This document shows positions 1 to 64,000 of a DNA stretch of 64,000 nucleotides, one piece after another. The first letter of the stretch is position 1; every line of letters begins with the position of its first letter. Below the pieces are notes generated by a model that was given only the letters and a program-made list of their open reading frames with translations, did not search any database and was not told the DNA's origin. Position numbers and translations under genes: made by a program. Source of the DNA: Ostreococcus lucimarinus (lineage: Eukaryota); the NCBI GenBank assembly GCA_000092065.1, contig CP000600.1; one strand, given 5' to 3'.

Positions 1-1766
1 GACGAAGACGACGAAGAGTACGCTATAAATCGTGTACACCTTGTGTCCCCAAACCGAAGCGAAAATGTAGAACAACTCGATGTAAATAGCGCTGAATGGC
101 AAGAAGCTCGCGATGCACATCTGCGGAATCGTCGCGCGGTACCATGGCAGCGCTGGGATGTCGCGCGGATACTTCGTTGTTCGCACCGGCGCGTTGAACT
201 CTGCCTTGGCGTTTTTACCGGCTATGCCTCCGACGATGGTGAGAGGAATGGTGACGATGGCCCAAAGCAAGACGATGAGTACGATGGTACCGAAAGGTAA
301 CGCCGCCGTGCTCCTGTACGCGATGGCGACGGTGTTCAAAAACGAGAACAACACGCCGAGCGGGCCGCAAAACAAGACGCACGTCAACAGCACGTTTCGC
401 ACCCAGTTTTCACCACCCATTTGTCTGTACGTATTCGCCGAGACGTAGCCTGCGATGCCTGCGGTGAGCGAGTACATGATCAAACATGCCGCGGTGACTG
501 CACCCATGCTGTACGGGTAAAACGCGCCAACGAGGGCCAACATGAAGACGAAGATGACGAGAAAGAAGAGTTGCGTTCCAGTGCCTATTATGGCGGCGAA
601 CAGCGACCTGCCCCGCGGGAATCGGAACACATCGCCGTGCACATACTTCCAACCGGACTCTTCTTGAGACTCCAACATTTCTTCGTCTCGCGCAAACTTG
701 ACAAAGTCATTCTTCAACACTCTCAACAAAATTGACGCTAAGAAGCCCATCATCAAAATAACCGTCACGCACGAGTTGATGATGCTAAACCAATGAATCT
801 CCAGGTGCTCGGGTAAGAAAGAATACCGCGAGTACTTATCCATTCTATCCTTAAACGCCGTCGTCGTCGGTTTCCAATGCACGCTATAAGAAAACCGCAT
901 CGACATCGCCTCGTCCGCCGTGATATCTACCGTCTTCAATGGATCCGTACTCAAGTTGATCTCAATCACTCGATCTTCGTTGTACGAAATCTCAAAGTGC
1001 ACGTGCGTGAACAAGAAATACCTGTTCTCTGCCGCCGCCCCCCCGCGCATGATCTTCTCCACTTTCCCGATGAAGCCCCAAATCGGCAAGTCGTCGAACG
1101 ACATTTGAAAGTAGTAGTCATTCTTCACCGCCCGGCGAAACTTCTCCACCTCTTTCCGCTCTAAAAACTGCGTGCACAAGTCCACATTCTCCTTATCGAT
1201 GCCAAATTCTATCTCATAAGGAGACTTGGCGAGCCTATCCCCACCCAGTACTTCACCCAAATCCGTTCGCTCGCGCTTGACGCCTTCGGGCGAGCGACAA
1301 AACGGGAAATCGTAATACTGATATGTCTGCGCGAACGAGCCGGGCGCGACGAGCGAATTCGAGTCAGTCTTAACGTTCGCATCCGCATCTCCCTCGACGC
1401 GCGTTCGCGCGCATTCACAAGACATTTCGACCGCGTCGTCGCGTTTGGATTAATCAATTCGCCGCGCGCGCGCGTTCGATTTTTCCACTACGACGTCGAC
1501 GCGCGAAACCGCGCACGCACCTCACTCGGATTGTGAAAAGGTCCAACCTTGTTCGCGAACAGCGCGATGTCGTCGCCGCGATCGTATTTCGAGCCCGCGA
1601 GGAGCGAACGACCGATGGAGTTCGAAGTCGATCCTCGTTGAAGATCTTCCGCGCGCGCGCTCGACGCGCGCGTACACAGCACCGCACACGACGCGAGCAC
1701 CACACACGACTCGAGGAACGCGCGTTTACGCGTTGGACGCGCGCGGGGGCGAGTTCGCGCGGTCAT
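1..1766 (-). CDS. TM9SF: Transmembrane 9 superfamily (nonaspanin/EMP70) protein; 2 exons (1521..1766 and <1..1326), C-terminus runs off window start
   Basis: Own translation of minus strand. Exon 1 encodes a signal peptide plus 'LFANKVGPFHNPSE'. It is followed by donor GTGCGT (intron 1327..1520, 194 nt, acceptor CAG). Exon 2 continues 'TYQYYDFPFC...DYYFQMSFDDLPIWGFIGK...' through nine predicted TM helices with no stop before position 1. These motifs are diagnostic of TM9SF. The first ATG is at 1766; the ORF-track M at 1772 is GTG. Confidence 0.85.
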
Positions 1767-3946: not shown

Positions 3947-4852
3947 TTACAAGCCGAGTTCTATGGCTAAGGCGGTCTTGACTTTTTTCACCGCCTTCGC
4001 GGGCGGCGCGTTCGTTAACGCGGTCGGCGGCGGCGCGGGCGCGGACTTCTTCGCGTCGTCGTCGTCGTCGTCGTCGCTCTCGGTGAGTTTAATTTTCGCC
4101 GTGCGCTGGGTGTGCAAGGTGTCCTTGGTCAACGGCGGCGGCGCGAAAAATCCAAACGTCGCCGCTTTCGCCGGTTCCGCGCTCGTCGACGGCGCCGCGG
4201 TGGGAAACGAAAATAACCCCGCCGGTTTCGTCTTCTCAGCCTTCGCCTCGCGCGCGTCGTCGTCGTCATCCGCCTCGACGGGCGCGCCGCTCAGCCGCGA
4301 AAACACGCTCGATCGACCGGCGTCCGCGTCCTCCCTCTTCGCCCCACCCGTGAGCGCCGCGAACCCTGCGAACGCGTTCGACGTCGTCTTACCACCGTCC
4401 CCGGTTCCACCCAACGGCGATTGTCCCGGTCGCTTCGCCTTGACCACCTTTCGCCTCCCGCCCGACGAGCTCGCCGGCGACTCGCTCGCCTCCCCCGGCT
4501 TCCTCCTCGCCACGTACTCCCGCCCCTGATCCTCGAACGCCCGTCGCTCCCGCTCCCGATCCTTCGCCTCTTCGATCTCTCGCTTCGCCCGCTGCGCCTC
4601 CACCTGCGCTTTCGCCTGTTCGATCATCGCGTTCACGTCGTCCGACGGCGTCGCCGCGCTCGCCGCGAACGGATTCGCGCCCTCGGGCGCCGGCGGCGCC
4701 TTCGCCGCGCGTCCGAAGTAATTCCCCGTCGCCTCGTCGACGTCCGCGTCTTCCTCGTCGTCGTCCTCTTCGTCGCGCGCGTCGTCGCGCGCGTCGTCGA
4801 CCTGCGCGTTCAAACCGACGCCGTCAGTCCAATCGCGCATCGCATCGCGCAT
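3947..4852 (-). CDS. Acidic low-complexity protein with FG-like repeats (FGFF, LFSFP, NAFAGFA); hypothetical
   Basis: The 301-aa ORF starts at an ATG. It has D/E-rich tracts alternating with short F/G/A/P motifs and charged spacers. There is no homology beyond the FG-repeat-like composition. Its stop lies only 53 bp upstream of the HMG gene's ATG. Confidence 0.4.
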
Positions 4853-7945: not shown

Positions 7946-8503
7946 ATGGCGCCCTCTCCCGCGAGCGCGTTCGATCCCACGAAGCTCGACGTGTTCTTCG
8001 AACAATACGTCGATGAAGACACGCAGCTCCCGCTCATCGCGAGCATAATCGATCGAGAACTCAGCGAACCTTACTCCATCTTCACCTACCGGTACTTCTT
8101 GAACAACTGGCCCGAGCTGTGCTTCATGGCGATCGATTCGTCCTCGCGCGAGTGCGTGGGTGTCATCGTGTGTAAGCTCGAGAAGCACCGGGAGATGATG
8201 CGGGGGTACGTGGGGATGCTGGTGGTGGATAAGCGCGCGCGCAAATTGAAGCTCGGGAGCGAGCTCGTGTCGCGCGCGCTGGCCGTGATGCAAGAAAGAG
8301 GCGCGGATGAGTGCGTGTTAGAGGCAGAGACGACGAACGAGGGGGCGCTGCGGTTGTATCAATCATTAGGATTCATCAGGGATAAGGCGTTGTCGAGGTA
8401 CTACTTGAGCGGGCGCGACGCGTATCGCCTCAAGCTGTTATTCCCGCTGCCACCCGCGGACGAGGTGGACGAGGCGAGCGGCGCGCCGAGCGACGCGAAC
8501 TAG
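7946..8503 (+). CDS. NAA30: N-alpha-acetyltransferase 30 (NatC catalytic subunit, MAK3-like GNAT)
   Basis: The 185-aa ORF starts at an ATG. 'YRYFLNNWPELCFMA', 'GYVGMLVVDKRARKLKLGSELV' and 'LEAETTNEGALRLYQSLGF' match NAA30/MAK3. Confidence 0.8.
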   Translation: MAPSPASAFDPTKLDVFFEQYVDEDTQLPLIASIIDRELSEPYSIFTYRYFLNNWPELCFMAIDSSSRECVGVIVCKLEKHREMMRGYVGMLVVDKRARKLKLGSELVSRALAVMQERGADECVLEAETTNEGALRLYQSLGFIRDKALSRYYLSGRDAYRLKLLFPLPPADEVDEASGAPSDAN

Positions 8504-13928: not shown

Positions 13929-14174
13929 CGCCCTCGCGCGCTCCTAGCGCGTCGCGCGCGTCGTCGTGTGCCGAAAACGGTCGAGAACGTCGAGAGAGCC
14001 ATGTGTCGGTTCTTGTCCTCTCTCGGCCAACACTAAAATCTACAGCGCAACTTTTGCTACGCGGCACATCGACGCGCGACGCGCGACGCGCGAACGCGAA
14101 CGCGAACGCGACGCGACGCGAAATAACGTCGACGGTGACGTCGACGTGACCGCGCGCGACGCGCGCGACGTCGA

Positions 14175-14228
14175 CGAACGAACGAACGAACGAACGAACG
14201 AACGAACGAACGAACGAACGAACGAACG
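14175..14228. repeat. (GAAC)n tetranucleotide microsatellite, about 13.5 units
   Basis: Read directly: 'gaacgaacgaacg…' lies in the divergent promoter between the Patched-like gene (ATG 13928, minus strand) and the SNARE-like gene (ATG 14253, plus strand). GTCGAC/TGACGTC palindromes flank it. Confidence 0.9.
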
Positions 14229-14252
14229 ATCGTCGAGCCAACACCCGGCGCG

Positions 14253-38495: not shown

Positions 38496-38713
38496 CGCGA
38501 CGACGCGCCGTCGCGCCGATCGCGTCGACCCTCGCCGCGCGTCTCGCGCGCGCGGCGTCGCGCCGACGCGTCGCGACGCCGTCGCGATCGGCCGAAGCAT
38601 CGCGACGTCCGCGCCGATCGCTGTTCGCGAGATCGGTCGTCGCGTCGCGCGCGTCGCCGTGTGCGACGCGCGCGCGACGACCGATCGGGGATCGACGATT
38701 CGGAGAGCGACGT

Positions 38714-38740
38714 GCGGTCGGTCGCGTATGGGTAAACAGT
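38714..38740. repeat. 27-nt motif GCGGTCGGTCGCGTATGGGTAAACAGT, copy A (identical copy at 48512..48538)
   Basis: Exact 27/27 identity is read directly. It lies in the divergent promoter between the 37500 gene (minus strand) and SF3A2 (plus strand), with nearby GTAAACAG/TAACAG repeats. Confidence 0.8.
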
Positions 38741-38883
38741 GCGGGGTGTAATAACAGTGCGTCCCGATTCGCGATTCGCGCGCGCGACGCCCGCCGCGAC
38801 ACCGCGCCTCGCGTCGCGTCGCGCGCGGCCGAGACCGAGACCGAACCGCGAGACCTCGTAAACAGGGCGACGGACCCGCCGTC

Positions 38884-48274: not shown

Positions 48275-48511
48275 CGCGATCGGGTTCGAAAAGTCGCGCG
48301 CCCTTCGCGTCGGCGTGTAACATGATTAATACCAAGCGACCGAGCGCCGCGCCGCCTCGGCGTCCACGCTTCGCCCTCGACTGGTCCTCGCCGCGCTCCC
48401 GGGTTCGCCCGCCGGCGGGTTATATGGGCATATGTAGTCTATAATACGGTAACAGCCGCTCGACGCATAAAGCGTATCCTCGTGACGTGGCGCGTAACCG
48501 AATCCGCGATC

Positions 48512-48538
48512 GCGGTCGGTCGCGTATGGGTAAACAGT
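48512..48538. repeat. 27-nt motif GCGGTCGGTCGCGTATGGGTAAACAGT, copy B
   Basis: It is identical to 38714..38740. It lies in an AT-richer stretch upstream of the PPR gene, with TATA-like 'tataatacgg'/'gtgtataag' nearby. Confidence 0.8.
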
Positions 48539-48984
48539 ACGCGATTCTGGATATCGAGATGCGGGATGGATACGACACCCGCGTGTATAAGACCCATCGC
48601 GCGTCGTCTCGGCGCGGCTTCACACGCGCGCGCGACTCGGGTGCGATCGAGTCGCGATTCGTGAGACGCGTCGTCACACGCGCGAGGCCGTCACGCGCGT
48701 TTCGCGTCGAGGCGCGCGCGATCGCGCCCGAAATCGCGACGAAACGCGTCGCGGTCGCGTCGCGTCGTATCTTTGCGCGCGCGTCGAAAGCGGCGAGGCG
48801 ACGACGACGCGCGACGACGACGGAATCGAAACGAACGAAACGACGCGACGCGTAAACGCATTGACGACGTTCGCGACATCCGAGATCGCGAGGGCGGACA
48901 CCGGTCGAGGAGGACGGCGACGCGGGGATAATCGCCGAGGGCGAGACGCGCGCGCGGGACGCGGCGAGACGACGACGCGAAGCG

Positions 48985-51580: not shown

Positions 51581-52885
51581 TCACAAGAGGCGAGCGATTT
51601 CGTCAGTCTCGAACTCGGGCGCTCGTCGAAGGCGACGTATGACGATGCCGACGATGGTGACAGCGACCACACAAAAAAGTGAAGCGCGCGACACGTCTAG
51701 GTCACGAGTGCTGACTACGATTGAAGCTTTCGAGCCCAGACGTGCGCTGACACTCGATGTCGGCGACGCTTCGCCGTTGAGCTCTCTTTGGAGCTCGGCG
51801 AGTTGTTGCTGCAAGCCGGGCATCGAAGGGTGGTCGGGCTTGCGTCTGCCGATCTTTCTGGTGAGCCGGCGAATATCCCGCTTAAGTTTAGCGGCCTGAT
51901 CCGGCGTCAAAGCCGGCGGCGAGGACACGGGCTCGGACGCCGGACTCGGACTCGATGTCGGCGACGCTTCGCCGTTGAGCTCTCTTTGGAGCTCGGCGAG
52001 TTGTTGCTGCAAGCCGGGCATCGAAGGGTGGTCCGGCTTGCGTCTGCCGATCTTTCTGGTGAGCCGGCGAATATCCCGCTTAAGTTTAGCGGCCTGATCC
52101 GGCGTCAAAGCCGGCGGCGAGGACACGGGCTCGGGCGCCGGACTCGGACTCTCCACCGGAGTCGACGACGGATGTGCGTCTGGAGTCGCCGTTGGCGGCG
52201 GGTTCGGTGGCGGATTCGGCGGCGGATTCGGCGGCGGACTCGGCGGCGGCGGGTTCGGCGGCGGATTCGGCGGCGGACTCGGCGGCGGCGGACTCGGCGT
52301 CCCCCCGTTCACCGTGGACGTCACCGACGACGTCACCGTGGACGACACCGACCCCTCACCCAACGCCGCGCCGACGCCCTTCGTCCACGCCCTCGCGCCC
52401 AGCGCCCGCGTCGCCTCTCCCCATCGCTCGATCGCGCCTCCTTCACCCGTTCCGCACGTCCCGATCGCGAGCGCCAAGCACGCGCACGCCCCCGCCGCGC
52501 GCCACCGTCTCGCGCGCGTCGTCCCTCGCCTCCGCGCGTCGTCCCTCGCGTCGTCGCTCGCGCTTCCGCGCGACGTCCGCGTCGCCCCGTACGTCCCTCG
52601 CGTCGTCGTCGCGTCGTCCTCGCTCGCGCGCGCGCGTCCCGTCGCGCGCGTCATCCCTCGCGCGTCCCGCGCGTCCCGCGCGTCCCGCGAACGCGTCGTC
52701 CCGAAGTCGTCCCGAACGCGCGCGCGGTCGGCGTCGAGCGGCGGCGCGACGGCGGTCGGGGTCGGCGTCGCGCGCGCCCGGCGCGACGCGCGCGCGGCGC
52801 CGTGACGGGGTCTAAGCGTTAGACGCAACTCCAATTCGTAGCCCGCGCGCGTGTATTTCGTAACACCATACACCGATCGGCACAT
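51581..52885 (-). CDS. Proline-rich type-I membrane protein with a 66-aa internal tandem duplication (hypothetical)
   Basis: There is a signal/anchor-like 'AAGACACLALAIGTCG', then P/S/N-rich 'PPPSPPPNPPPNPPPPSPPPNPPP', then 2×'EPVSSPPALTPDQAAKLKRDIRRLTRKIGRRKPDHPSMPGLQQQLAELQRELNGEASPTSS', then a TM helix 'LFCVVAVTIVGIVI' and a short tail. The start is uncertain: ATG at 52885 or an internal ATG near 52657. Confidence 0.45.
   Translation of the reverse strand: MCRSVYGVTKYTRAGYELELRLTLRPRHGAARASRRARATPTPTAVAPPLDADRARVRDDFGTTRSRDARDARDARGMTRATGRARASEDDATTTRGTYGATRTSRGSASDDARDDARRRGTTRARRWRAAGACACLALAIGTCGTGEGGAIERWGEATRALGARAWTKGVGAALGEGSVSSTVTSSVTSTVNGGTPSPPPPSPPPNPPPNPPPPSPPPNPPPNPPPNPPPTATPDAHPSSTPVESPSPAPEPVSSPPALTPDQAAKLKRDIRRLTRKIGRRKPDHPSMPGLQQQLAELQRELNGEASPTSSPSPASEPVSSPPALTPDQAAKLKRDIRRLTRKIGRRKPDHPSMPGLQQQLAELQRELNGEASPTSSVSARLGSKASIVVSTRDLDVSRASLFCVVAVTIVGIVIRRLRRAPEFETDEIARLL
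51755..52152. repeat. Tandem duplication, 2 × about 198 bp, 2 mismatches
   Basis: Read directly: 'cgatgtcggcgacgcttcgccgttgagctctctttggagctcggcgag…ggactcggact' is repeated head-to-tail inside the Pro-rich gene. Confidence 0.9.
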
Positions 52886-63795: not shown

Positions 63796-63873
63796 GATAT
63801 CGAATGAATAGCTATCCCCGCGTCGTCGCCGTCGCCGTCGTCGTCGTCCCTTTGTGTCTCCGCGCCGTCGTCG

Positions 63874-64000
63874 GTTTAGGGTTTAGGGTTTAGGGTTTAG
63901 GGTTTAGGGTTTAGGGTTTAGGGTTTAGGGTTTAGGGTTTAGGGTTTAGGGTTTAGGGTTTAGGGTTTAGGGTTTAGGGTTTAGGGTTTAGGGTTTAGGG
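63874..64000 (+). repeat. Telomere: (TTTAGGG)n, about 18 units, G-rich strand 5'->3' toward window end
   Basis: Read directly: 'ggtttagggtttagggtttaggg…' continues to the last base. This is the Arabidopsis-type telomere repeat. Confidence 0.95.

Follow-up and report, generated by a model that had tools for sequence, protein, structure and literature searches.

A 27-nucleotide sequence repeated exactly in two intergenic regions of Ostreococcus lucimarinus: a candidate promoter element

A 27-nucleotide sequence, GCGGTCGGTCGCGTATGGGTAAACAGT, is present twice, exactly and on the same strand, in the window, the whole 64,000-nucleotide stretch of Ostreococcus lucimarinus DNA analysed here (Table 1). 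A cis-regulatory reading of this 27-mer is the best supported but is unproven, and readings as a non-coding RNA gene or as a MYB site are not supported. We tentatively suggest that the sequence is a long promoter element that binds a protein, works in either orientation and has been copied from site to site. The repeat described in the first-pass annotation is borne out, as is its non-coding location upstream of genes, which is established by gene calls for copy 1 and by indel polymorphisms for copy 2.

Results

An exact repeat confined to 27 nucleotides

The 27-mer is laid out as GGTCGCG, followed by the two halves GTATGGG and AAACAGT. The window contains no third match at three or fewer mismatches on either strand and, beyond the two copies, no match to the 20-mer core at five or fewer mismatches. 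Not one of 100 dinucleotide shuffles contained any 27-mer match, giving a chance expectation of 0. The identity ends abruptly, the preceding base being t in one copy and c in the other, and the flanks of the two copies were unalignable with MAFFT and short-word BLAST, so that the homology is confined to 27 nt. No larger common element was found with MAFFT and blastn-short in the 600 nt on either side of six distinct copies. Copies 1 and 2 have all 27 nt in common, and share only 20–21 nt with the remaining members of the family described below.

The host is a picoalga with a high GC content (0.62) and very little DNA between its genes. The products of the SF3A2 and Arp2 genes beside copy 1 match XP_001422618.1 and XP_001422774.1 of O. 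lucimarinus CCE9901 exactly. Perfect (GGTTTAG)n, that is, TTTAGGG telomere repeats, fills positions 63873-64000 and reaches the last base of the window; these terminal repeats mark the window as one end of a chromosome some 550 kb long, with copy 2 about 15.5 kb short of the telomere. Elsewhere in the window, an (ACGA)n-type microsatellite (ACGAACGA repeated) occupies 14166-14241.

The sharp-ended repeat itself raises the possibility that one copy was pasted from the other, about 9.8 kb off, as templated filler during double-strand-break repair, with all other loci merely containing a similar short core. The copy is short, exact and sharp-ended, it lacks flanking homology, the two copies are near each other on one chromosome, and their mutual identity exceeds that with the rest of the family by six to seven bases. 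We nevertheless consider such a neutral event quite improbable, as it leaves unexplained both the same 20–21-mer in three other contexts and other algae and the core that two other species have at orthologous promoters. Both copies are, moreover, fixed in all population contigs examined.

Table 1. Coordinates of the two copies, of neighbouring elements and of related introns (window coordinates except for the introns, which are numbered on contig L012)
Feature	Position	Strand	Evidence or remark
Copy 1, exact 27-mer GCGGTCGGTCGCGTATGGGTAAACAGT	38714..38740	+	exact match
Copy 1, 20-mer core	38721-38740	+	
Copy 1, 15-mer core GTATGGGTAAACAGT	38726-38740	+	
Divergent intergenic region, ARMH5-like (-)/SF3A2 (+)	38601..38883	.	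gene calls, translations, GC profile
Second AACAGT half-site ATAACAGT	38751..38758	+	10 nt past copy 1; heptamer not enriched in window
Intergenic region, K-channel stop to PPR ATG	48275..48984	.	1-nt indel polymorphisms at 48880 and 48934
TGTAA, poly(A)-signal-like pentamer	48316..48320	+	42 nt past K-channel stop; retained in L037
TATATGGGCATATG, lone 5' half-site (TATGGG)	48421..48434	+	about 100 nt upstream of copy 2, beside TATA-like TCTATAATA
GGTAACAGC, 3' half-site-like	48447..48455	+	upstream of copy 2
GTGACGTGGCG, resembles bZIP ACGT-core site	48482..48492	+	20 nt upstream of copy 2; identical in L037
Copy 2, exact 27-mer	48512..48538	+	20-mer core 48519-48538; 15-mer core 48524-48538
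TGGATACGACACCCGCGTGT, 20-nt block	48567..48586	+	28 nt downstream of copy 2; identical in L037
L012 intron	592-667	+	
L012 intron	1302-1393	+	
L012 intron	4688-4819	+	also in L007
L012 intron	7958-8032	-	also in L007

Both copies are promoter-proximal

Both copies lie in promoter-proximal, non-coding DNA. Copy 1 sits near the middle of the 283-nt gap between an ARMH5-like gene and the divergent SF3A2 gene, 113 nt from the ARMH5 ATG (38600, minus strand) and 143 nt from the SF3A2 ATG (38884), according to gene calls on an identical contig. The 3' half of the copy, together with the next 30 nt, makes up the sole AT-rich trough of this gap, with a GC content of 0.50–0.57 versus about 0.8 on either side. 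GC profiles place the 3' half of the motif in the AT-richest trough of each of the two intergenic regions. Copy 1 is invariant in 13 contigs of the O. lucimarinus population, 10 of which were chosen independently of the motif; divergence at the locus is merely about 1–2%, and the contigs are thus too uniform for the population data to reveal constraint.

The orthologous SF3A2/ARMH5 gap of O. mediterraneus, which we fetched via the neighbouring proteins, contains ATATGGGTAAACAGT, with the 15-mer core (RTATGGGYAAACAGT) in the opposite orientation. The tandem arrangement ACTGTTTTGTAT + ACTGTTTACCCATAT is as in O. lucimarinus, with the entire module inverted, and a second ACTGTT-type site accompanies the core on the same side in both species. 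The motif is absent from this gap in O. tauri and in a fourth species. At the same locus, O. mediterraneus has an SF3A2 intron after codon 65 (L029 3783-3957; GTGCGT donor, ACTGAC branch point) that is missing in O. lucimarinus and O. tauri, a presence/absence difference within the genus. We left one contig, L038, out of the promoter comparison: positions 1-224, upstream of an SF3A2 more than 90% identical to that of the window, are AT-rich and bear no relation to the promoter of O. lucimarinus, and the contig may be chimeric or rearranged.

Copy 2, which was seen in L010, L013 and L014, is flanked by a two-pore K-channel gene and a PPR gene; within the 710-nt gap separating them it lies 238 nt past the stop of the former (48274) and 447 nt ahead of the ATG of the latter (48985). 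Given the 1-nt indel polymorphisms in the population, we regard the whole gap as non-coding. In many metagenome gene calls the PPR protein is 948 aa long, with an Arg/Ser-rich extension that would start 28 nt past copy 2. We rejected this form, in view of the within-species 1-nt indels and of a start ATG that is GTG in the sister species represented by L037; the 948-aa PPR is an ORF-calling artefact of GC-rich non-coding DNA (window 48567-48984). TGTAA is a poly(A) signal in green algae, and since such a pentamer precedes copy 2, the copy lies downstream of the likely 3' end of the K-channel transcript. Just downstream of the PPR gene, a 198-nt unit is present twice in tandem with 99% identity (51752-52147), followed by a 12-nt periodic GGCGGATTCGGC repeat at 52170-52300.

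In L037, whose K-channel is 84% identical, the K-channel/PPR gap aligns in blocks. TGTAA, GTGACGTGGCG, ACCGAATCCGCG and the exact 20-mer TGGATACGACACCCGCGTGT are conserved, and the rest has diverged. Conservation of TGGATACGACACCCGCGTGT is not driven by coding, because the overlapping ATG (48566-48568) is the one replaced by GTG. The site orthologous to copy 2, CTGTGCGCAAACAGT, matches the 15-mer core at 12 of 15 positions, with AAACAGT intact and the GCGGTCGGTCGCG part lost; the ATG within the motif is lost as well (GTGCGCAAACAGT). L037 thus has a diverged homologous stretch and not an empty site, which argues that the copy 2 site is old.

The motif is absent at the PPR promoter of more distant species and, taking both loci, O. 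tauri, L031/32 and L034-36 lack it at orthologous promoters. In O. tauri and another species, the promoters contain TGAGTCA/TGACTCA (AP-1/GCN4-like) where O. lucimarinus has the motif: four tandem GACTCAT units are found in the O. tauri K-channel/PPR gap (L033 5270-5310), and further instances lie at about 2050 in L036 and at an estimated 4350-4380 in L027. Since the core is found at orthologous promoters of O. mediterraneus and L037, both promoters appear to have held a core-like site for a long time, and the long exact form is probably specific to the O. lucimarinus lineage. This partial conservation in sister species sets the 27-mer apart from a sequence found only in this window.

Relatives of the core in marine metagenomes

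The 20-mer core, GTCGCGTATGGGTAAACAGT, has 16 exact loci in 241 million metagenome records, rather than hundreds of copies in a known repeat. Seven of the 16 are variants of the two window loci, two are AT-rich, and seven fall in three further GC-rich contexts from marine metagenomes (L005; L007/L011/L012; L008/L015/L016). The AT-rich pair (L002 295-314 and L003 1691-1710; GC 0.29–0.32) has the exact 20-mer in a clearly different context. The pair is probably a chance match, and it indicates that roughly one random 20-mer match is to be expected in a collection of this size. By contrast, the three GC-rich contexts are truly related to the window copies, given that L012 and L015 have 28/29 nt in common, that L005 has a second, degenerate copy 220 nt distant, and that the 15-mer core occurs six times in 5.9 kb of L007, where 0.18 are expected.

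The L008/L015/L016 context consists of chromosome-sized, Ostreococcus-like contigs in which the motif lies at the centre of the divergent promoter between an intron-containing RPL35A gene and a gene for a DDX5/Dbp2-like helicase. The three Ostreococcus-type loci (ARMH5/SF3A2, RPL35A/DDX5-like and PPR) are therefore all promoter-proximal, and a genome of the O. lucimarinus type apparently contains no more than about three exact copies of the 20-mer. Over about 230 kb of related sequence, mismatch scans and an nhmmer profile detected no weaker copies beyond the known instances, and viral contigs contained no match to the 27-mer, the 20-mer or the intron box described below. A literature search for these sequence strings and for Ostreococcus promoter motifs found nothing.

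The core in repeated introns of another alga

In L007 and L012, which come from polar metagenomes, the motif recurs in four short introns, 75, 76, 92 and 132 nt long, that are spread over three genes. Their consensus reads GTRCGT ... CCAAATCCCGCC (2-3 nt) CTGTTTGCCCATAC (A)AG ACTGACAC ... AG, with GTRCGT donors and GACTGAC branch points (GACTGACAC). The central box of all four, ACTGTTTG[C/A]CCATAC, is the reverse complement of the motif; one intron has two such boxes in tandem, and excising one intron restores a sensible DEK reading frame. GCCCATAC of the box can pair with GTAT(T)GGGC just past the donor. Between the core and the repeated L012 introns, 14 of 15 positions agree. The whole 27-mer can be aligned ungapped to the intron core through the branch-point region at about 18–20 of 27 positions, of which the part outside the 15-mer core (6/12) is within chance. 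A different arrangement is found at L007 430-494, where the exact 20-mer is preceded by two degenerate tandem copies of the 5' half, GCGTACGGGGGATGG and GTCGTGTATGGGGGATGG, in frame in a RIC1-like gene and within a segment missing from the nearest homologue.

The L007/L012 introns look like an introner family and, from the polar samples and the 75–76-nt repeated introns, our guess is that they represent Micromonas polaris / E2-IEt1. Like the Micromonas IEs (IE-A/D-IE, IE-C/ABC-IE, E2-IEt1/t2), they combine a GYRaGu donor and a GACUGAC branch point with a segment that can base-pair with the 5' splice site, and this arrangement is described as the structural feature that Micromonas IEs have in common (Simmons et al., PMC4540971). 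Introner families of different lineages are reported to have no common primary sequence (PMC4540971). M. pusilla also has 463 partial introner repeats outside introns and near UTRs, often shrunk to one short motif (Verhelst et al., PMC3879977); the window copies resemble these short IE fragments in lying outside introns and near coding sequence. Unlike Micromonas IEs, however, the window copies are intergenic, 27 nt long, without splice sites and very low in copy number. Neither strand has a CTGAC or a donor/acceptor pair around either copy, and two copies in 64 kb with 27 nt in common compare with IEs of 67–200 nt present in tens to thousands per genome. A search for the terminal inverted repeats and target-site duplications of MITE-type, cut-and-paste elements found no inverted partner in the window and no duplicated flanks.

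The main rival to a promoter element follows from these introns. The 27-mers could be inert or selfish remnants of a short mobile repeat akin to introner-like elements in other Mamiellophyceae, internal fragments that landed or survived in nucleosome-free promoter or UTR DNA and have no host function. Such an origin would fit the match of the motif's reverse complement to the intron box, the clustering of the core in L007 and the ungapped alignment of the 27-mer, and it has a precedent in the partial repeats of M. pusilla. Subfamilies such as copying yields are also seen (27 nt for copies 1 and 2, 29 nt for L012/L015 and 20–21 nt for the others), and the flipped O. mediterraneus copy could be an independent insertion into the same open promoter. 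Yet the copies have no terminal inverted repeats, target-site duplications or splice signals and nothing in common beyond the 27 nt, they are very few, the intron match past the core is at chance level, and L037 has a diverged version of copy 2 in place of an empty site. No introners have been reported for Ostreococcus, and a further source (PMC9860276) is silent on the genus and does not mention it as an introner carrier. We regard a relic as possible but somewhat unlikely. The earlier proposal of a mobile-element fragment accordingly draws support from the core being the box of repeated introns in another alga, but none from inverted repeats, target-site duplications or a larger common element. 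The promoter-element and relic readings are compatible, should a mobile repeat bring a factor-binding site with it. An unlikely variant is that one functional module appears in two guises in the Mamiellophyceae, as a promoter element in Ostreococcus and as the core box of another alga's introners.

RNA-level readings

The first-pass annotation had also raised a small Pol III or non-coding RNA gene. Rfam at the gathering score reported no family in the entire window and, even at E<=10, nothing over either locus; ARAGORN found no tRNA over the copies. Neither copy folded better than shuffles on either strand (z -0.9 to +1.2), and the TATA-like element lies 6 nt from one copy and 45 nt from the other. 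Together, these results do not support an RNA gene. Two specific candidates were rejected. A minus-strand Pol III RNA, running from a TATA box to a T-run after the K-channel gene, was without an Rfam match, was poorly conserved in L037 and had no counterpart at copy 1. A telomerase-RNA template was dismissed as there is no CCCTAAA-type template nearby.

A related reading would make the motif an upstream promoter element of the USE/PSE kind, or part of an unannotated small RNA gene. The plant USE is RTCCCACATCG, which the reverse complement of the motif, ACCCATACGCG, loosely resembles. As in the upstream elements of snRNA genes (plant USE, metazoan PSE), the element is long (about 20 nt), near-invariant and low in copy number, with TATA-like boxes close by. 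In contrast to those elements, its spacing to the TATA-like boxes varies, its flanking genes are protein-coding and it has no known small RNA nearby. Rfam was blank over 145 kb of related loci too, so that no snRNA promoters were available to compare. There is also no T-run terminator at a constant distance and, combined with the Rfam, tRNA and folding results, this makes a USE/PSE-like element the least credible of the readings considered here.

The motif could instead act in the RNA, as a 5' leader element whose upstream start codon or short uORF (ATG GGT AAA CAG, encoding MGKQ) controls downstream translation. Copy 1 opens a seven-codon uORF, MGKQCGV*, ahead of the SF3A2 ATG by the distance given above, and copy 2 opens a 109-codon ORF that ends ahead of the PPR ATG. 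The L008 ATG shares the reading frame of the DDX5-like helicase and is the start chosen in many gene calls (609 versus 570 aa). Nevertheless, the peptide past MGKQ is not conserved, and the seven bases before the ATG are as well conserved as the codons. The motif of O. mediterraneus faces away from SF3A2, the L037 site is without the ATG, and most L007 copies are antisense within introns. Control through a uORF therefore seems very improbable.

Half-sites and flanking elements

Recurring cores around the copies had been described in the first-pass annotation as fitting MYB-type sites. GTAAACAG is indeed present three times in the window versus 0.55 expected, but its third instance (38858) is GTCCG-AG in 10 of the 13 population contigs. 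RTAACAG, found four times against 3.5 expected, is at chance level, with two of the four adjoining the copies, and AACAGT is likewise at chance frequency. TATGGG is found 11 times versus 3.7 expected, with the other eight instances resembling ordinary coding sequence, and TTTACCCGTA at 512 falls in coding sequence. The 'GTGTA(A)TAA' reported after both copies is present, 6 and 45 nt on, but the sister species has not retained the second.

Plant MYB sites (MBSI CNGTTR / YAACNG) are matched by the flanking ATAACAGT (38751) and GGTAACAG (48447), and tandem AACAGT-type sites lie beside the motif in O. lucimarinus and O. mediterraneus. However, AAACAG (CTGTTT), the conserved core, is off the YAACNG consensus, a MYB site is much shorter than the 15–27 nt of the element, and the flanking TAACAG sites are at chance frequency in the window. 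A MYB assignment is thus not supported for the core.

Discussion

Of the readings weighed above, a cis-regulatory one fits best, given the AT-rich promoter core, the partial retention at orthologous promoters and the orientation independence; the absence from O. tauri detracts from the fit. In the model that we tentatively prefer, a sequence-specific protein would bind a long, high-information site in the promoter core. The 27-mer would be placed in the nucleosome-poor, AT-richer centre of short Ostreococcus promoters, where it could act on either or both flanking genes, whatever its orientation. The extra identity of the two window copies (27 versus 20–21 nt) would reflect the copying of one site into the other, by short-patch conversion or templated insertion, and not independent selection.

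We favour an element that is bound by protein at the DNA level because the motif lies at the AT-rich centre of promoters, because the core is retained in flipped orientation at orthologous promoters, and because there are neighbouring conserved blocks and no RNA, intron or transposon signature. Several observations nevertheless weigh against a promoter element. Twenty-seven exact bases, or the 20–21 shared across algae, far exceed what a typical factor needs. The motif is rare, with two matches per 64 kb even at 3 mismatches, and O. tauri and three other species have no copy at the orthologous promoters. The core also recurs in the repeated introns found in another alga, and there it could plausibly act at the RNA level. 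Given that the length and exactness, the subfamilies and the intron-embedded relatives fit an ordinary factor site less well, we suggest that the long form spreads by copying.

The closest analogy for a promoter element of this kind may be the sites of yeast general regulatory factors (GRFs), such as Reb1 (TTACCCG) and Rap1 (ACACCCATACAT). These are long, specific sites that lie in the nucleosome-poor centre of short, often divergent promoters and work independently of orientation. They are also found between tandem genes, and here one instance is at a ribosomal-protein promoter (RPL35A). The reverse complement of the motif, GTTTACCCATAC, contains a Reb1-like TTACCC and a Rap1-like ACCCATAC, matches of 6–8 bases that could be coincidence. 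The motif is, however, much rarer than yeast GRF sites.

Ostreococcus is a transformable model alga with about 8,000 genes, intergenic regions of about 200 nt and few transcription factors, and we know of almost no promoter elements that have been defined for it. A 20–27-base element common to the promoters of SF3A2, PPR, DDX5-like helicase and RPL35A genes, all connected with RNA metabolism, and partly kept between species provides a directly testable handle on Ostreococcus promoter architecture. If the sequence were merely a relic or a pasted fragment, it would be a minor curiosity. If the link to the introns is true, it bears on the origins of introners, for which cross-lineage similarity is unreported (PMC4540971). 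Should the module truly exist in two guises, introners may arise from, or carry, a host site that binds a factor or excludes nucleosomes; alternatively, Ostreococcus, thought to be introner-free, may keep relics of an introner-type invasion. Either outcome, if true, would for the first time connect an introner family by sequence to elements beyond its own lineage.
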